A DNA stretch of 64,000 nucleotides from Alphaproteobacteria bacterium SS10 (GTDB lineage: Bacteria > Pseudomonadota > Alphaproteobacteria > TMED2): assembly GCA_019192455.1 (NCBI GenBank), contig JAHCML010000003.1, positions 1,388,160 to 1,452,159 on the forward strand, in the 5' to 3' direction. The translations under genes were made by a program, and so were the position numbers. The notes under the pieces are model-generated. The model was given only the letters and a program-made list of their open reading frames with translations. It was not told the DNA's origin and made no database searches. Shown piece by piece: positions 851 to 16,754 of the stretch. Each line of letters starts with the position of its first letter. Position 1 is the stretch's first letter.

Positions 851-1969
851 CTAGGGAGCTGCGAAAATCGCAACCTGCCCCGCTGCCGCCGGGTCAGGCG
901 CCGTCACTGGCGGTGCCAAAATCAGGCGCTCACGGGCAATGCCCTGCTGTTGCAGCGCCTGACTAACCGTCCGGGCGCGGCCCAATGCATCATCGGCGGC
1001 GACATCAGCACCGCTAAAGGGCACCAACCGAAGCCGGTTCGGCAATTGCGCGGTGTCCCCTGCCCACGCCTCAAGCGAGGCCTGCGCATCGCTTCCCAGC
1101 ACTTCGGTGCCATCCAGGGATAAGACTAGTAACGGTTCGGCCCGCTCACTTATCGACGGGATTGGTGCAACCGGCGTGCGGGAGGCGGTGGCAAGGTCAG
1201 CATCGGCCCCACGGGACAGATCCACGCCACCGGTGCTTGGCAGCTCCAGGCTTGGCGGCTCAGCAATGTCCAGCGGTGGTGGTGCCGCTATCGCAACTGG
1301 CGCGGCGGGTGGCGGCGCAATTGGGGCTGGCTCAATATCCTCAACACCGAATTCTGGCGGATGAACCGGGACGGGCTCTGGGGTTGGAAGTTCCGCCAAG
1401 TCAGGTTCTGGTGGTGCCTCAATCAGTGGTGGCGGTTCCGGTACTGCGCCGGTTCTTGGCGGCAACCCGGTGTCGGGGTCAATTGACGTTGGCTTCGGCT
1501 CTGGCCGGGTCAACTGAACCGCCGGTGCTGAGAGGTCAATTGCTGGCGCGTCCACCAAATCCGGCGCCGCGGGTGCCGGATCAACCTGGAACCCTTCCAA
1601 CCCATCAATCTCACTTGGTGGTGGTAGGTCTGGGCGATCACCGCTTTCGCGCAGCTCGTCTGCCCGCGTTAGGTCGGCGGAGAGTTCGGCATCCAGGGCC
1701 GCAATGCGTTCAGCCGCCGATACATTCGGGCGGGCCGGCACACTGGCCAGGTTTGGCGCTGGCTGCGCAGATAGGTCAAACTCCCGCGCGGCTCGTAACA
1801 CGCTGTCACTACTGGGCTGCGGTGCGGACCAATATGGCAGTACCTGATCAATGCCCTCGGCATCCGTTGACGCGGCAGAACAGCCGGTCACCAGCAGGAC
1901 GGTAACCAGAGATGCCAGAATTCTGGGACGCAGGTCGTATGACAACGAATAGCTCAAGGGTGGACGCAT
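851..1969 (-). CDS. Proline-rich lipoprotein with a weak OmpA-like C-terminal tail.
   Basis: The internal Met MRPPLSYSLSYDLRPRILASLVTVLLVTGCSA gives a signal peptide plus lipobox (VTGC). A roughly 200-aa Pro/Ala/Glu-rich low-complexity linker follows. The C-terminal GRARTVSQALQQQGIARERL resembles the end of an OmpA/MotB peptidoglycan-binding domain. The start is chosen at 1969 instead of the track's 2128 because of the lipoprotein signal. Confidence 0.55.
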   Translation of the reverse strand: MRPPLSYSLSYDLRPRILASLVTVLLVTGCSAASTDAEGIDQVLPYWSAPQPSSDSVLRAAREFDLSAQPAPNLASVPARPNVSAAERIAALDAELSADLTRADELRESGDRPDLPPPSEIDGLEGFQVDPAPAAPDLVDAPAIDLSAPAVQLTRPEPKPTSIDPDTGLPPRTGAVPEPPPLIEAPPEPDLAELPTPEPVPVHPPEFGVEDIEPAPIAPPPAAPVAIAAPPPLDIAEPPSLELPSTGGVDLSRGADADLATASRTPVAPIPSISERAEPLLVLSLDGTEVLGSDAQASLEAWAGDTAQLPNRLRLVPFSGADVAADDALGRARTVSQALQQQGIARERLILAPPVTAPDPAAAGQVAIFAAP

Positions 1970-2156
1970 CCTATTGGCTATGCGATCACCGGCGCGATTC
2001 GTGCGCCGTGTACATTCCGCATGCCCCAGGCTTATTATTCCCAGGGGGTTAGGGCTTAAATCTACTTGAGTGGTAGCACCGGCGCGCCAAGTAACACAAT
2101 AAGCCGACCGCACACTGTTAGCAGCCACGCGCTTTCAGCATCAAAAAGGGTACAGC

Positions 2157-4337
2157 ATGACCGAGGCGACGCAAAAACGAACCCGGGCCACGGCCGCCAA
2201 AACTGGCGCGAAGACGACTGCTAAGGCTGGCGCTAAGGCAGCGCCCAAGACCACGGCGAAGCCTGCAGCAAAAGCGGCTGCAAAACCGGCGGCGAAGACC
2301 ACCCGTAAACCGGCTGCTAAAACGGCTGCTAAGCCAGCTGCGAAAAAGCCAGCCGCCGTGAAAAAGCCTACCACCGCGAACGCAACAACTCGCAAGCCCG
2401 CAGCAAAGAAGCCTGCCCAGACAAAGGCAGCCGCCGCCAAGAAGGCAACTGCCAAAACGACCACCACTAAGGCATCACAGCCGAGCGCCGCGAAGGCTAA
2501 AGCCCAGGCAGGTGCGAAGAGCAGCTCAACGAAATCAACAAAGACCGAGCCACCGCAGGTCAAAATCCCCGATCCGGTAGAGCTGTCCAAATCTGTCGCT
2601 AACATCGCCGAGCGCAGCCAAAAGCTGATCCTCGACTTTATGGAAAAGCGTGGCCAACAACCGGATGAGAATGGTGCGCTAGATCCGCTCAATATCGGTA
2701 GCGCATTCCTTGAGCTGACCCAGCGCATGATGGCCGACCCCGCCTATCTTATGAAGGCGCAGATGTCGCTGATGCAAAGCTATGTCGACCTCTGGCAGTA
2801 CACCACCCAACGCATGCTGGGCGGTCAGGCGAAGCCAGTTGTTGAGCCAAGCAAGGGCGACAAGCGCTTCAAGGATCAGGAATGGGAAGACAACGCGGTC
2901 TTTGATTACATCAAGCAGTCCTATCTGCTGACTGCGCGCTGGCTGCAGGATACTGTTCACAAGGTCGATGGCATCGATGCCAAGCAGCGTAAGAAGCTCG
3001 ACTTCTATACCCGTCAGTTCGTTGACGCGCTTGCCCCATCAAACTTCGCGACCACCAACCCGGCGGTTATTCGCGCGACATTAGAGAGTGGCGGCGAAAA
3101 CCTGATCGACGGCCTGGAAAACCTGCTCCGGGATATGGAGCGTGGTGAGGGTGATCTGATCGTCACCATGACCGATAAAGAAGCGTTCAAGGTCGGTGAG
3201 AATATCGCCGTGACGCCGGGCAAAGTGATCTATGAGAACCCCCTAGCCCAGCTGATCCAGTATGAGCCTACCACCAAAGAGGTCTTCAAGAAGCCCCTGC
3301 TGGTCCTGCCACCATGGATCAACAAGTTCTACATCCTCGACCTGAAGCCTGAGAATTCGTTCATCAAATGGGCGGTCGATCAGGGTCACACGGTCTTTGT
3401 TGTGTCCTGGGTGAACCCGGATGAGAGCCTGGCCGATAAGTCCTTTGAGGATTACATGCGCCTCGGCGTGTTCGACATGCTCGACCAGATTGAGAAACAG
3501 ACCGGTGAGCGCCAGGTGAATGCGGCAGGCTATTGCCTGGGCGGTACCTTGCTGGCCTCAACCCTTGCGGTGATGGCGCGGCGTGGAACCGATGATCGGA
3601 TTGCATCGGCCACCTTCTTCACCACCCTCACCGACTTTGAGGAAAGTGGTGAGGTCGCCGTCTTCGTTGACGAGACCCAGCTTGAACATCTGGAAGATCG
3701 GATGGCCGATACTGGCTATTTCGATGCCATCGACATGCACCGCATCTTCAATATGCTGCGGGCCAATGACCTGATCTGGTCATTTGTCGTGAACAACTAC
3801 CTGCTGGGTAAAGAGCCAATCCCATTTGATCTGCTGTACTGGAATTCAGACAGCACGCGCCTGCCAGCAGCGATGCACCTGTTCTACCTGCGCAATATGT
3901 ATCAGAAGAATTTGCTGATCGAACCCGATGCGCTGACCCTGGATGGCACACCGGTTGACCTGAACCAGGTGAAGACACCGACCTATCTACTCTCCACCCG
4001 GGATGATCACATCGCACCTTGGAACTCAACCTATCGGGCGACTGAGTTCTATAAGGGCGACACCACCTTTGTTCTGGCTGCCTCCGGCCATATCGCCGGC
4101 GTGGTGAACCCACCAGCGAAGAACAAATACTGCTACTGGACCAATGATAAGCTCAGCAAATCTGCGGAAGACTGGCTGGAAGCAGCCGAGCAGCACGACG
4201 GATCATGGTGGCCGCACTGGCAGCAATGGGCCAATCAGCATATTGGTGAGAAAGTGCCGGCACGCGACCCATCCAAGGGCAAGCTGAAGCCGATTGAGAA
4301 TGCCCCCGGTCGCTACGTGACCGTCCAAGCGTTCTAA
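2157..4337 (+). CDS. phaC: Class I poly(3-hydroxyalkanoate) synthase PhaC with a ~130-aa N-terminal histone-H1-like Ala/Lys/Pro-repeat extension.
   Basis: The core from about residue 150 matches PhaC. It has the lipase-box GYCLGG, FILDLKPENSFIKWAVDQGHTVFVVSWVNPD, and the PhaC N- and C-terminal domains. The N-terminus is repeats of AAKP/AKTT/KKPA (AKTGAKTTAKAGAKAAPKTTAKPAAKAAAKPAAKTTRKPAAK...). Confidence 0.9.
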   Translation: MTEATQKRTRATAAKTGAKTTAKAGAKAAPKTTAKPAAKAAAKPAAKTTRKPAAKTAAKPAAKKPAAVKKPTTANATTRKPAAKKPAQTKAAAAKKATAKTTTTKASQPSAAKAKAQAGAKSSSTKSTKTEPPQVKIPDPVELSKSVANIAERSQKLILDFMEKRGQQPDENGALDPLNIGSAFLELTQRMMADPAYLMKAQMSLMQSYVDLWQYTTQRMLGGQAKPVVEPSKGDKRFKDQEWEDNAVFDYIKQSYLLTARWLQDTVHKVDGIDAKQRKKLDFYTRQFVDALAPSNFATTNPAVIRATLESGGENLIDGLENLLRDMERGEGDLIVTMTDKEAFKVGENIAVTPGKVIYENPLAQLIQYEPTTKEVFKKPLLVLPPWINKFYILDLKPENSFIKWAVDQGHTVFVVSWVNPDESLADKSFEDYMRLGVFDMLDQIEKQTGERQVNAAGYCLGGTLLASTLAVMARRGTDDRIASATFFTTLTDFEESGEVAVFVDETQLEHLEDRMADTGYFDAIDMHRIFNMLRANDLIWSFVVNNYLLGKEPIPFDLLYWNSDSTRLPAAMHLFYLRNMYQKNLLIEPDALTLDGTPVDLNQVKTPTYLLSTRDDHIAPWNSTYRATEFYKGDTTFVLAASGHIAGVVNPPAKNKYCYWTNDKLSKSAEDWLEAAEQHDGSWWPHWQQWANQHIGEKVPARDPSKGKLKPIENAPGRYVTVQAF
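2163..2560 (+). repeat. Imperfect tandem low-complexity coding repeat (GCn-AAG-CCn units) encoding the AKP tail of PhaC.
   Basis: Visible periodic gctaag/gcgaag/ccggct units. The reverse strand yields the spurious hydrophobic ORF 2141-2728. Confidence 0.8.
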
Positions 4338-4352
4338 GCCACGCCTCTAGCT

Positions 4353-4982
4353 TTAGATCGCGGCCGTACTTGGCAGCACATTCGGATCAAAGGCACGCCG
4401 CCGGTCTTGTGAAAAGACTGGCGGTTTTGCGGCGCGTTGATCCATCAAATCTTCCAGCCGCTCAATCAGCGTAAGCCGGTTACCGGATAGCCAGCGATAG
4501 CAACCCTGTGTCAGCCAGCCAGCGGCAACCATGGCGGCAATGAATGGCATCGGGTTGGCCATCGGGCTCCATGCCGCGCTGCTGATGCCCAGAATGGAAA
4601 CAGCGACCAGTAGTAAGAGGCAGGCAGCCACAAACCCGCCGATAAAGCCGAGCATCCCGGCCATCACACTGGTGGTGCCAGCCACTGCCGGGCTGATGAA
4701 ACGATAGGCCCGCATGATGTTGTCATGACAGATCAGACGACGATGGGATTGCTGATTAAACAGGGCCAGCAGCAGCCCAGATTGCCGATCACGAACCACC
4801 GTCAGTGATTGACCAACCCGAACCGGAAAAGTGCTGTGCACCGCCAGGACCAATGGTGCCAGCCCACGTCCGCGCGAGACCTCTACCCGCTGAATGGGGG
4901 TGATGGGAAAGAGCTTCCGCCCTTGATCCACTGTCCGAACGGCAAGAACTGAGCCGTCATCTATCCGTAATGCGTCAACCAT
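4353..4982 (-). CDS. Hypothetical membrane protein: a bacterial-PH-like N-terminal domain followed by two transmembrane helices.
   Basis: The N-terminal ~90 aa (DGSVLAVRTVDQGRKLFPITPIQRVEVSRGRGLAPLVLAV) look like a bPH/YdbT-like fold. Two hydrophobic helices follow (GMLGFIGGFVAACLLLLVAVSILGI and MPFIAAMVAAGWL). I recognise no specific family. Confidence 0.45.
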   Translation of the reverse strand: MVDALRIDDGSVLAVRTVDQGRKLFPITPIQRVEVSRGRGLAPLVLAVHSTFPVRVGQSLTVVRDRQSGLLLALFNQQSHRRLICHDNIMRAYRFISPAVAGTTSVMAGMLGFIGGFVAACLLLLVAVSILGISSAAWSPMANPMPFIAAMVAAGWLTQGCYRWLSGNRLTLIERLEDLMDQRAAKPPVFSQDRRRAFDPNVLPSTAAI

Positions 4983-5097
4983 AAGTGGTCCCCGGTTAAA
5001 CCCTTAAGCGGCCTGCACTCCGCCATTCGGGCACTTGGAAAACCCAACCTTAAAAAAGTTTCAGCAAAAACGATGCCAACCCTATAACTTCAATAGG

Positions 5098-6123
5098 TTA
5101 CGGGCGGCGACGGGATTGAACATCTGGTCCATCTGGTGCTTGGCCCGGTTCTTTGCCGGGCTGGTATCCCGGCGGGCCAGGTAACAGCTCTGTAAGCCGT
5201 CCAGCATGCGGTAACTCAGCATCCGGAGTAATGCCGCCCTTATCCTCTGACACCGCACCGCCGGAACCAGGCGGGCGCTCACCGCCAGCAAAGATCAGAT
5301 CCATAAATCGCTGTTTTAGTGCATCCTCATTCGGGCGATCAAACTGGGTCACCAGAATGGTGCGGGCACCGAGAGACTGCATTGGCGCCAGATCGCGATC
5401 AACACGATTGCCGATCATCACCGAGCGGTTTGGGTCAACGCCCCAATCTTTAAGGGTTTCGGCGATAACCTCTGGTTTAGCTTTGAACCCAGCCGGTAGG
5501 TTTTTGACCCGCGGCCAAATCGTGCTCGGGTATTCAGCTTCAAGATCATCGATACCTGTCGGCGTGGTCTCAGACACGACCGCCAGCTCATCCATATCGT
5601 CCGCCAGGCCGATGGCATTGAGCTTCACCGCCGTTGCAGAGCCTGGCCCCTCGGTCATCATAATGAGACGGTAGCCCTGCTCTCGCCACTGCTTGATGGC
5701 CTGAACAAAGTCTGGATCAGGTTCCAGCACCGCAATCATCGCCTGCTCGGCTTGCTCACGAATAACACCAAACTCAGCATTCAAATCGCGATGCGGGAAC
5801 TTCTCTTTCAGTGGGCCGTGATCGTTAAACGCGCTGGCGAAGGCGTAGATCTCCTCCGCTCGGATATCTTTGAAGCCCTCGGCCACGTCAGAGAGCGGCA
5901 ATCGGCTCATTCGCGCTAAGCCCCGATAGATCGTATCAACATAGGCAAGCAATGCTGGGGTGCCAGCGACGATGGTGTCATCCAGATCTAGGATGATCGT
6001 ATCGACATCTTTGAAATCACCTGGGTTGCCGAGATTGGGATTCCGGCTCTCACCGCCAGGCGAATGATCAGAATTGCGGGCCATTGGTCTGTGGGGGTAT
6101 CGATCAGGGGCATCGACACTCAA
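5098..6123 (-). CDS. HAD-superfamily hydrolase with N- and C-terminal low-complexity extensions.
   Basis: HAD motif I LDLDDTIV near the N-terminus. The C-terminal ~60 aa are Pro/Gly-rich. It lies downstream of the argC cluster on the same strand. Confidence 0.6.
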   Translation of the reverse strand: MSVDAPDRYPHRPMARNSDHSPGGESRNPNLGNPGDFKDVDTIILDLDDTIVAGTPALLAYVDTIYRGLARMSRLPLSDVAEGFKDIRAEEIYAFASAFNDHGPLKEKFPHRDLNAEFGVIREQAEQAMIAVLEPDPDFVQAIKQWREQGYRLIMMTEGPGSATAVKLNAIGLADDMDELAVVSETTPTGIDDLEAEYPSTIWPRVKNLPAGFKAKPEVIAETLKDWGVDPNRSVMIGNRVDRDLAPMQSLGARTILVTQFDRPNEDALKQRFMDLIFAGGERPPGSGGAVSEDKGGITPDAELPHAGRLTELLPGPPGYQPGKEPGQAPDGPDVQSRRRP

Positions 6124-6694: not shown

Positions 6695-7396
6695 TCAGAA
6701 CTCCAGCCCGGTTGGCACGGCGACACTGGCGGCAATACGCTCTAACTGCCGGTCACGGAATGGCACTGGCAAGGGTGGTGCCGCCGCCTGGTCGCGCAGT
6801 TTGATGCCGAGGCCAGACTGATCAATCGTCTGGCTGCCCGCGAAGTTCACAACCTCAGCCGCCCCCTTGTTCACATAGACTGTGTAGCTGCCATCCAAGC
6901 GGCCAACCCATAGATCAGAAGCACGGCCGTTAATGGTACCGAGCGGCGTCTCAAGGCTAAGTCGGAACGGCTCAAACCCGGGTGGAAGCTTTGGCGTTGG
7001 GTCAGGCAGGTAACGGACACCGCCTGCAGCCTCAACCTTTAGATGGACCGTCTTGGGGAAGCGGATATCGCCAACGAATTTATCAATGAGGACAGTTGTG
7101 TTCGGCCCGATACGAACGACACCACCGGCAACAAGCTCAAGCTCGCAATACCCACCCTTGCCCGTGCTGATCCGGTCTCGAAGGTAGATCGACGCATCTT
7201 TCTGTAAGCGCCTGTCGAGGGCTGGATGCTCGGCCTTAATTGGTGAGCGGCGAGTAACGACCCGTGCGACAGGTGCGCCAAGCCGTGGGCCCAAAGCGCT
7301 CGCATAGGCTGGGCCGGCTAAGCCAAGGCCGGAAAATCCAAGGCTGGCGAGCCCGGCAGCGAAATGACGACGGGTAAGGCCAAGGCGCTCAGTCAT
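6695..7396 (-). CDS. Hypothetical exported protein with a twin-arginine-like signal.
   Basis: N-terminus MTERLGLTRRHFAAGLASLGFSGLGLAGPAYASA has an RRxF motif, a hydrophobic core and AxA. No recognisable catalytic motif. It is tightly packed between argC and the gamma-CA-like gene (7 to 10 nt gaps). Confidence 0.5.
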   Translation of the reverse strand: MTERLGLTRRHFAAGLASLGFSGLGLAGPAYASALGPRLGAPVARVVTRRSPIKAEHPALDRRLQKDASIYLRDRISTGKGGYCELELVAGGVVRIGPNTTVLIDKFVGDIRFPKTVHLKVEAAGGVRYLPDPTPKLPPGFEPFRLSLETPLGTINGRASDLWVGRLDGSYTVYVNKGAAEVVNFAGSQTIDQSGLGIKLRDQAAAPPLPVPFRDRQLERIAASVAVPTGLEF

Positions 7397-15593: not shown

Positions 15594-15670
15594 TGGTCGG
15601 AGCGGCGGGATTCGAACCCACGACCTCTCGCCCCCCAGGCGAGCGCGCTACCAGGCTACGCTACGCTCCG
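15594..15670 (-). tRNA. tRNA-Pro (anticodon GGG).
   Basis: The reverse complement folds as a cloverleaf: acceptor CGGAGCG/CGCTCCG, D-arm GCGUAGCCUGGUAGCGC, anticodon stem CUCGC/GCGAG with loop CUGGGGG (anticodon GGG), and T-arm GUGGGTTCGAATCCCGC. A CCA end is encoded. Confidence 0.9.
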
Positions 15671-15784: not shown

Positions 15785-16447
15785 TCAGGACAGCTTGGTC
15801 AGCAGCTTATCAATATCACCGCGCAAGGCCTTCAACTCATCAAGGGCTTGCTTGGCCGCCGCCTCAAACGCCGCTGCTTTTTCATCGGCCTTCTCTGCCA
15901 GGGCTGCTGAACCATTTGTGGCTGGCGCTGGTGATGCGGCAGGTGCAGGCGGTGGCGTTACAGCCTTGGGGCGGATCGGCACAACTGGCGTCTCCGCCTT
16001 AGCAGCGTCTTCCGCTGGCGCTTCAGTGGCTGGCTTAACCTCTGCTGCTGCCTCTTCTGGCGCGCCATCGGTCAGGGCCTCGGTCACGTCGTCAGCCGCT
16101 TGCTGAACGCCGACCTCGCGGGCCTTCTCGATACCGCTGGCAACACCACGGGCTGATTTCAGAACCTTCTGAACGCCCTTAATCGTGTAACCCTCATCGT
16201 GAAGCAGGCGCTGGATCTCACGCAGCAGCTCCAGATCCTGTGGCCGGTAGTAGCGACGACCACCGGCTCGCTTAAGCGGTTTCACAAGGGTGAATTTGGT
16301 TTCCCAGAAGCGCAGGACATGTTGTGGCACGTCCAATTCCTCCGACACCTCAGAAATGGTGCGGAAGGCATCTTTGGTTTTGTTCTTAGCGTTCTTCTTG
16401 GCCGCAGACTTTTTGGGCTTCTCTGCGGCCGCTTCCGACTCACTCAT
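15785..16447 (-). CDS. MerR-family transcriptional regulator with an Ala/Pro/Glu-rich C-terminal tail.
   Basis: Mer[29 protein letters not shown]...GGRRYY. It is the conserved neighbour of ihfA in alphaproteobacteria. Confidence 0.8.
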
Positions 16448-16754
16448 CGTCAGCGTCGATCCCGTTGATGCGGTCCTTCAACACGTGGCTGGCGCGAAAC
16501 ACCAAAACCTTGCGTGGGCTGATCGGCACTTCTTCACCAGTCTTTGGATTACGGCCGATACGCTCGCCCTTCTCACGAACCGAGAAGGTGCCAAAGGATG
16601 AAATCTTCACGGTTTCGCCGCGAACCAGCGCATCGCTGATTTCATCCAACACACTCTCAACGAGCGAGGAGGATTCATTTCGGGAGAGACCGACCTGGTG
16701 ATAGACGCTCTCGCTCAAGCTAGCGCGGGTAACGGTTGTTGAAGAATCGGCCAT
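16440..16754 (-). CDS. ihfA: Integration host factor subunit alpha.
   Basis: About 100 aa with [44 protein letters not shown], the canonical IHF/HU fold signature. Confidence 0.9.

Follow-up and report, generated by a model that had tools for sequence, protein, structure and literature searches.

The phaC locus and the catalytic core

The gene studied here lies near the start of a 64-kb stretch of DNA (64,000 nucleotides of contig JAHCML010000003.1 of Alphaproteobacteria bacterium SS10, hereafter the window) and encodes a class I poly(R)-hydroxyalkanoate (PHA) synthase, PhaC, with a long basic tail fused to its N-terminus. The phaC open reading frame (ORF) occupies positions 2157..4337 of the plus strand (2,181 nt, 726 aa), and its translation agrees with the peptide quoted in the initial annotation, made from the DNA letters, which had described a single ORF running from a Lys/Ala/Pro-type tail of about 135 residues into a canonical class I synthase. 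Both parts of that description hold: an A/K/T/P-rich tail (residues 1–135, 2157..2561, plus strand), delimited by composition and by AlphaFold2 modelling, precedes a synthase core recognised by the NCBIfam class I model TIGR01838. A Shine-Dalgarno-like AAGGG can be read at 2146..2150 (plus strand), 6 nt 5' of ATG-2157; promoter and terminator scans were uninformative, giving counts no higher than those in shuffled sequences.

The enzyme part appears from its sequence to be an ordinary class I PhaC, intact and of the active type. TIGR01838 matches residues 192–722 with 790.4 bits (cut-off 622.65), and the class II and class III models score far under their cut-offs (436.9 bits against 855, and 108 bits against 365, respectively). 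Nor does a second-subunit gene lie alongside phaC, consistent with a single-subunit class I enzyme. Pfam places PhaC_N (PF07167) at residues 235–406 followed by Abhydrolase_1 (PF00561) at 408–651, together delimiting a PhaC_N and alpha/beta-hydrolase catalytic domain at residues 235–651 (2859..4109, plus strand). The catalytic residues Cys460 (nt 3534–3536), which lies within the lipase box GYCLGG, Asp617 (nt 4005–4007) and His645 (nt 4089–4091) are invariant across an alignment of 59 sequences. The core aligns with the solved full-length PHA synthase 9knj over residues 190–724 (E = 3e-154) and the catalytic domain with the C. necator PhaC1 structures 5hz2 and 5t6o; the C-terminus carries no extension, the core alignment running to residue 724–726. 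Between tail and catalytic domain lies a conserved helical region (residues 136–234, 2562..2858, plus strand) starting from IPDPVELSK, defined by the onset of conservation in the alignments and by helices modelled by AlphaFold2 at residues 140–167, 180–192 and 195–220. An identical protein is listed by NCBI as a class I synthase of an Alphaproteobacteria metagenome-assembled genome (MAG), encoded on a 1.56-Mb contig.

A lysine-periodic, predicted disordered tail

The tail ends at about residue 130–135, and the conserved core is recognisable from about residue 131, at PPQVKIPDPVELSK; positions 2157–2570, over which the tail was originally described, correspond to residues 1–138. Alanine (33%), lysine (22%), threonine (19%) and proline (9%) dominate its composition, and with 34 lysine and arginine residues against 2 aspartate and glutamate residues it has a net charge of +32 and a pI of 11.8, compared to 5.0 for the core. 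Its most regular part consists of 13 x-x-x-K tetrapeptides (residues 12–63, 2190..2345, plus strand) in the order TAAK TGAK TTAK AGAK AAPK TTAK PAAK AAAK PAAK TTRK PAAK TAAK PAAK, placing a lysine at every fourth residue 13 consecutive times between residues 15 and 63. When the tail was shuffled 100,000 times, the longest period-4 lysine run had an average length of 2.9 and was at most 10, so that no shuffle attained the observed 13. KPAA occurs six times in the tail, PAAK five times and AAKP twice, and the motif PAKKA does not occur in it. A less regular K/A/T/S/P-rich part follows (residues 64–135, 2346..2561, plus strand), in which KKPAA and KPAAKKPA give way to K/S/T-rich sequence; in an alignment of six orthologues its C-proximal portion is loosely alignable to the shorter tails of the others.

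AlphaFold2, supplied with the 59-sequence alignment, models the catalytic domain confidently and residues 11–138 with a predicted local distance difference test score (pLDDT) of ∼30 and no secondary structure, so that the tail is predicted to be intrinsically disordered, as anticipated in the initial annotation. At E ≤ 1, residues 1–138 have no match in Pfam or NCBIfam, and a search with the same residues against 5.8 billion proteins returned nothing at E ≤ 1e-3, a harsh test given the composition correction applied. On present sequences, the likeness of the tail to known tails of the KPAA/AAKP type appears to be one of composition and periodicity and not of homology.

Tail and synthase form one gene

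The phaC frame is uninterrupted, with no stop and no change of frame across its 2,181 nt. It is closed upstream by an in-frame TAA at 2100–2102, after which ATG-2157 is the first start codon. Only two in-frame starts lie 5' of the conserved core, codon 1 (ATG) and GTG-68, and the next ATG is codon 162, inside the conserved core. With no start between GTG-68 and Met-162, at least residues 68–135 must be translated. Tail and PhaC core are one continuous gene.

That an error of assembly or sequencing fused a small, separate histone-like gene to phaC, or that the start was miscalled and the protein begins near residue 136, is highly improbable. Such an artefact might be suspected given that the long array is known from a single MAG assembly and that another tailed relative, P0094, lies on a frameshift-ridden contig. 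Against this stand the intact frame and the start-codon map, together with five orthologues from independent assemblies and sources that carry the same fusion; in tail-less relatives, moreover, no stand-alone K-rich gene is found 5' of phaC. The start codons and the independently assembled fusions exclude a frameshift or separate gene, and with it the missed stop that had initially been raised as the way in which the description could fail.

Orthologues and the history of the tail

The five orthologues (P0002–P0006, 73–80% identity) derive from assemblies in NCBI, JGI, ENA/TARA and Logan, and all possess fused N-terminal tails of 51–84 aa with net charges of +9 to +17 and pI values of 10.3–11.7. 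These tails are barely alignable except close to the core, and none contains a counterpart of the 13-tetrad array, which is known from this genome alone. The array is therefore an expansion specific to this lineage, built on a basic tail that was shorter and is older. Across the six orthologues a basic tail has been kept over ∼20–27% core divergence while its sequence turned over, and such conservation of charge without conservation of sequence is the hallmark of a disordered region that has a function. The two orthologous loci examined, those of P0005 and P0006, share, reading downstream, the gene order PhaC–HAD–hexapeptide–FecR-like–ArgC–FkbM methyltransferase, and in the longer of the loci (L082) synteny reaches S9–L13.

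Relatives at ∼65–68% identity, from Stellaceae, Azospirillum, Kiloniellaceae and others, have no tail. They start 11–38 residues before the PDP motif and their net N-terminal charge is mostly near 0 (P0008, +4).

Basic tails and other fusions among PHA synthases

Among 80 species-representative loci from GTDB, a K-rich N-terminal tail is found only in the nearest relative (L001) and in a Beijerinckiaceae MAG (L079). A scan of metagenomes with the N-terminal 248 aa as query found no relatives, and when JGI metagenomes were scanned with the alignment of orthologues, the 80 loci obtained were generic PhaC loci that included no close orthologue and only two cases (L112 and L145) of weakly basic N-terminal extensions; the latter scan added no strain-level variation in repeat number.

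A wider view was provided by an exhaustive HMMER search of 1.84 billion representatives of clusters at 50% identity, which yielded 11,360 PhaC-like proteins, 2,106 of them at E ≤ 1e-30. Tails were surveyed in the best 150 of the 11,360 representatives. N-terminal extensions of at least 40 aa are present in 21 of these 150, and about 11 of the 21 are basic low-complexity tails that are mutually unrelated in sequence (P0122, P0124, P0126, P0144, P0147, P0164, P0171, P0178, P0209, P0228 and P0248), a frequency of ∼11 in 150 that is somewhat inflated since a tail adds to the search score. The sources of ten of these representatives were looked up, and all ten are uncultured. Basic N-terminal tails have arisen on PhaC repeatedly and independently. 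One of the eleven, P0228 (662 aa), represents a cluster of 72 members, one of which is annotated as a Pelagibacteraceae MAG; its 72-aa N-terminal tail is extremely Lys/Asn-rich, with 20 lysines and no arginine, and belongs to an AT-rich marine lineage. That SAR11-related genomes, streamlined as they are, should encode a basic-tailed PHA synthase is unexpected.

Two other class I synthases among the matches carry C-terminal additions of a different kind, DNA-binding modules like those that granule proteins employ, taken here as called, with gene-call or assembly errors possible in both. P0125 (759 aa, JGI, 4 contigs) is extended C-terminally by a PhaR-type DNA-binding domain (PHB_acc_N, 84 bits, residues 612–670, with a weak PHB_acc match), and could be a true fusion of synthase and regulator or a stop-loss or gene-call artefact between neighbouring phaC and phaR genes. 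P0127 (725 aa, Logan, 2 contigs) has a 130-aa C-terminal extension made of a K-rich linker and a motif resembling a helix-hairpin-helix (HhH), matching HHH_5 with 20 bits, under the cut-off; this extension recalls the Caulobacter HhH phasin PhaH. A further representative, P0121 (871 aa), has two PhaC_N matches, its first ∼284 residues repeating the N-terminal half of a PhaC; the choice lies between a duplication within the gene and a chimera made in assembly.

Several other candidates for tailed synthases were rejected. Halomonas/Billgrantia and several MAG loci, put forward by low query starts in tblastn, have normal N-termini on re-analysis. For P0094 (777 aa) the apparent tail length of 193–223 aa was left unused, its Arg-rich middle being probably a frameshifted reading of K/A/P codons. 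The contig of P0094 (L083) also carries split genes for glpX, homoserine dehydrogenase, isocitrate lyase and ornithine carbamoyltransferase, typical of an uncorrected long-read assembly. The repeat at the C-terminus of Vreelandella PhaC was discounted as a basic tail, the unit KPSTEKQGTE being zwitterionic; in V. zhuhanensis (L056, 5968–8223) and V. rituensis (L072, 5944–8196), both cultured Halomonadaceae, PhaC proteins of ∼750 aa end in tandem decapeptides of this type.

The repeat at the DNA level

The initial annotation had also noted the tail as an imperfect tandem repeat in the DNA. Tandem Repeats Finder (TRF) indeed reports a single array of 12-nt period at 2268–2345 (6.5 copies, 69% matches, score 49), but the repeat is weak: the 13 tetrad units have about 7.4 of 12 bases in common (∼62% identity), with synonymous codons scrambled. 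Alanine codons are used evenly in the tail (GCA 11, GCC 12, GCG 11, GCT 10) and are biased to GCC and GCG in the core (7, 19, 20 and 2, in the same order). This scrambling may stabilise the repeat against slippage. Periodicity is far stronger in the tail protein than in the tail DNA, and a perfect lysine register over diverged DNA units points to constraint at the level of the peptide and not to fresh slippage. An antisense ORF across the region (2141..2728, minus strand, 195 aa, Ala/Phe/Gly/Leu-rich) was rejected as a gene, and is the shadow of the GCN and AAG codons of the tail within the conserved phaC frame; frame −1 is open over the repeat only.

These observations bear on the idea that the tail is a neutral low-complexity expansion, produced by 12-nt slippage at a permissive N-terminus and without specific function. 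The restriction of the tetrad array to this genome, the variable and fusion-tolerant nature of PhaC N-termini and the weak 12-nt periodicity are as such an expansion would leave them. Slippage sits poorly, however, with units that are only ∼62% identical, with even alanine codon usage and with a perfect lysine register, and the tail is rich in lysine (codons AAA and AAG) although the window has 58% G+C. In addition, a basic tail has been retained in all six orthologues despite the divergence of their cores and the turnover of tail sequence, and similar basic tails have appeared independently in about 11 other PhaC clusters. We consider a neutral origin quite improbable.

Relation to known links between granules and DNA

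PhaM, PhaF and PhaH all connect PHA granules to DNA, and do so non-specifically (PMC9049629, PMC13052382). In PhaM of C. necator, the lysines of PAKKA motifs in a histone-like C-terminus are required for attachment of polyhydroxybutyrate (PHB) granules to the nucleoid (PMC9049629, PMC3556143), and besides anchoring PhaC1 the protein activates it (PMC9049629). The resemblance to the present system is that PhaM is physically coupled to a class I synthase and that, through its lysines, granules and the PhaC-PhaM initiation complex alike become attached to the nucleoid. PhaM differs in being a protein of its own, with further roles as an activator of PhaC1 and a binding partner of PhaP5, whereas the tail described here is a covalent fusion without PAKKA motifs or any domain besides PhaC, and it has neither the C-terminal PAKKA repeats nor the N-terminal domain that would mark it as PhaM-like.

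Closer in appearance are the tails of PhaF and AlgP, with which our comparison draws on the descriptions in the cited papers. In PhaF, the domain that binds DNA is made of AlgP-like Lys/Ala/Pro repeats and is natively unfolded without DNA (PMC3574117), and AAKP motifs define the DNA-binding tails of both proteins (PMC8686332). PhaF binds DNA non-specifically through its unfolded tetrapeptide tail and links granules to the nucleoid and to segregation (PMC3574117, PMC9049629). The PhaC tail likewise consists in part of tandem Lys/Ala/Pro tetrapeptides, many of them with Thr or Gly in place of Pro, and is strongly basic, with disorder predicted. Whereas PhaF, a separate protein of 26 kDa in a class II medium-chain-length PHA system, has its tail C-terminal to a granule-binding phasin helix, the present tail stands at the N-terminus of a synthase core of 591 residues, contains fewer prolines and more threonines, and has no detectable homology to either protein, nor does it share their C-terminal position on a small protein. 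With one lysine per four residues, its linear charge density equals that of (AAKP)n. A study of synthetic peptides by Medvedkin (1995, cited in PMC3574117) is said to have addressed the interaction of AAKP-type tails with DNA.

The tail had originally been described as histone-H1-like and of a kind with both PhaF and PhaM. Its K/A/P/T-rich, disordered and polycationic character does resemble that of the C-terminal domain of eukaryotic linker histone H1 and of the bacterial H1-like proteins Hc1/Hc2. The lysine content of the H1 C-terminal domain is higher than the 22% of the tail, and none of the Pfam families for H1, Hc1 and HC2 is among the tail matches at E ≤ 1. The part of the description that survives is a composition and a KPAA/PAAK periodicity of the AlgP/PhaF kind; a relationship to H1, HC2 or PhaM finds no support in homology or in PAKKA motifs.

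In the Alphaproteobacteria, PHB granules of Caulobacter crescentus are tethered to DNA by PhaH, a phasin with a helix-hairpin-helix domain (PMC13052382). The tail and PhaH would be alike as alphaproteobacterial means of tying PHB granules to DNA, but PhaH relies on a phasin-borne HhH domain that is folded and binds DNA, in contrast to a disordered lysine tail on the synthase.

The nearest precedent is PhaC2 of Cobetia, a class I synthase whose C-terminal extension, disordered and over 300 aa long, has a pI of ∼10.3 and some AAKP motifs; its authors speculated, in silico, that the extension serves in place of PhaM as an anchor to the nucleoid (Christensen et al. 2021, PMC8686332). A Cobetia protein of this type (P0132, Cobetia sp. 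cqz5-12, 940 aa, basic C-terminal tail) was among the matches of our representative search. In both cases a class I PhaC itself bears a long disordered extension of pI above 10. The Cobetia extension is, however, C-terminal, Ser/Thr/Ala-rich with scattered lysines, and belongs to cultured Gammaproteobacteria (Halomonadaceae), whereas the tail here is N-terminal, 135 aa long and built on strict one-in-four lysines, in an uncultured marine alphaproteobacterial lineage; the C-terminal extension conserved in Cobetia and Halomonadaceae is lacking from the present protein. The two extensions arose independently, on cores that are ∼47% identical. We found no paper on a PhaC with an N-terminal Lys-rich tail, so that the novelty assumed at the outset survives for this arrangement and not for basic tails on PhaC in general, which recur, or for the notion of a synthase-borne anchor, already proposed for Cobetia (PMC8686332).

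Possible roles of the tail

PhaC is covalently attached to granules, and N-terminal fusions to it are functional and surface-displayed (PMC5288705), from which it follows that the tail would project from granules. The explanation that we favour, at even odds, is that it is a built-in anchor for polyanions, specifically DNA, on the granule surface, standing in for an adaptor of the PhaM, PhaF or PhaH type. In its favour stand the single continuous gene, the basic tails of all five orthologues, a lysine register with the charge density of (AAKP)n, a predicted disorder like that of the PhaF domain, the role of lysines in PhaM, and the recurrence of basic tails and DNA-binding fusions on other PhaC proteins. 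In this scheme the N-terminus of PhaC would have gained a disordered polycationic tail of the AlgP/PhaF (histone-H1-like) kind and, with the synthase held covalently on the growing polyester, the tail would extend from nascent and growing granules in this organism. It would bind polyanions non-specifically, most probably chromosomal DNA, so tying initiation complexes and granules to the nucleoid and contributing to their spacing and to their partitioning at division. The tail would then do in cis the job that PhaM does in C. necator, PhaF in Pseudomonas and PhaH in Caulobacter, in a cell presumed to have no other adaptor.

Several points weigh against this proposal. DNA binding by PhaC tails is a property that we infer, and neither the Pfam and NCBIfam comparisons nor the tail-only search detects homology to H1, HC2, AlgP, PhaF or PhaM. 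Proline makes up 9% of the tail as against 25% of an ideal AAKP repeat, and threonine is high at 19%. At 51–84 aa the orthologues have far shorter tails, indicating that the long array is not required for basal function, and the array occurs in a single assembly of an uncultured MAG. Finally, polycationic disordered tails bind any polyanion, and the partner could be polyphosphate or RNA.

The last point leads to a more general role, in which the tail would be a phasin-like surface brush that binds polyphosphate or RNA, or coats the granule, blocking coalescence and keeping an acidic synthase soluble. AlgP, whose tail is of the same KPAA type, is a polyphosphate-granule protein that associates with and spaces polyphosphate granules (PMC13052382). 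The charge of +32 on the tail faces a core of pI 5.0, and the range of tail lengths among the orthologues (51–137 aa) is as expected if the exact sequence is unimportant. Such a role would also suit the gene content around phaC, where we considered PHA families among the genes near phaC and K-rich ORFs in the whole window: there is no phasin, PhaE or PhaR-type second subunit gene within ∼10 kb, and no other ORF of the 64-kb window has a K-rich segment like the PhaC tail. The latter finding also argues that the tail is not a genome-wide compositional habit. Two considerations make a brush as the explanation rather unlikely in our view, namely that the characterised Lys/Ala/Pro tails of PHA-granule proteins (PhaF and PhaM) work via DNA, and that lysines kept in a one-in-four register for 52 residues point to a ligand that is itself periodic, a phosphate backbone for example, though polyphosphate is periodic too. 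A surface brush and a nucleoid anchor are compatible and not mutually exclusive roles.

The tail might instead act on the enzyme itself, modulating dimerisation, the lag or priming phase, or turnover through contacts with the acidic core or through lysine acylation, and so mimicking activation by PhaM. The N-terminal region of PhaC affects dimerisation, activity, granule morphology and polymer molecular weight (PMC10867992), PhaM has an activating as well as an anchoring effect on PhaC1 (PMC9049629), and tail and core are oppositely charged. The first ∼100 residues of PhaC are, however, highly variable and flexible (PMC10867992), the tail is set apart from the first conserved helix with no contacts predicted, and its sequence holds no specific regulatory motif. 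Regulation in cis is, on this evidence, distinctly unlikely.

Neighbouring genes

Within ∼10 kb of phaC lie genes for a HAD hydrolase, a hexapeptide protein, a FecR-like protein, ArgC, a methyltransferase, S9 and a thioesterase, none of them PHA-related. The divergent gene 5' of phaC (851–2128, minus strand) encodes a protein of 425 aa without a Pfam match, whose long middle is acidic, low in complexity and rich in Pro, Ala, Glu and Asp; in L083, a locus more distant but alike in its upstream context, an OmpA domain is present in the gene at the equivalent position. Further along the window, a regulator of the MerR family, Lys-rich over a short N-terminal stretch (15785–16447, minus strand), overlaps the end of an upstream ORF of 104 aa (16440–16754, minus strand), which we take to resemble IHF-alpha. 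The sole tRNA of the window is at 15597–15670 (minus strand).

ORFs with basic low-complexity segments also occur near other phaC genes. In Halomonas sp. A29 (L066), a 152-aa ORF just 5' of phaC (4670–5128, plus strand) has a K/S/P/A-rich basic end (KEAPTKAASKPKTSSKPKTASARSRSRR) and may be a granule-associated protein with a basic tail of its own. Near a metagenomic phaC (L121), an ORF of 137 aa (6867–7280, plus strand) has a dipeptide repeat, (PK)n, that is both long and perfect.

Significance

What is new in the present synthase is a tail that is N-terminal, strictly periodic and alphaproteobacterial; Lys/Ala/Pro granule anchors and Cobetia-like basic PhaC extensions are of a known kind. At the level of sequence inference the advance is incremental, the concept having been proposed previously for Cobetia PhaC2. 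Engineered PhaC fusions already serve in bead display and in the control of granule size and number, and a natural DNA-tethering tag could be a useful addition.

A broader and, in our estimate, unlikely extension of the anchor proposal is that direct covalent coupling of the synthase to DNA-binding modules is widespread and has evolved repeatedly in uncultured or streamlined marine bacteria, including Pelagibacteraceae, the modules being histone-like lysine tails at either terminus, HhH motifs or PhaR domains. The 13-tetrad array would then also concentrate synthase monomers on the chromosome, driving their dimerisation and the initiation of granules on the nucleoid. Were this so, the nucleoid would be both activator and scaffold of PHB synthesis, and tail and enzyme together a one-protein equivalent of the PhaM and PhaC system.

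The adaptors of PHA and PHB granules differ among model organisms, and at stake are the generality of tethering and the minimal machinery that it requires. A synthase carrying its anchor in cis would, if the proposal is correct, be the simplest tethering system possible, and one open to a one-gene test. The independent recurrence of tailed synthases, alongside other DNA-binding PhaC fusions, suggests that coupling of granules to the nucleoid is selected for in many uncultured lineages.

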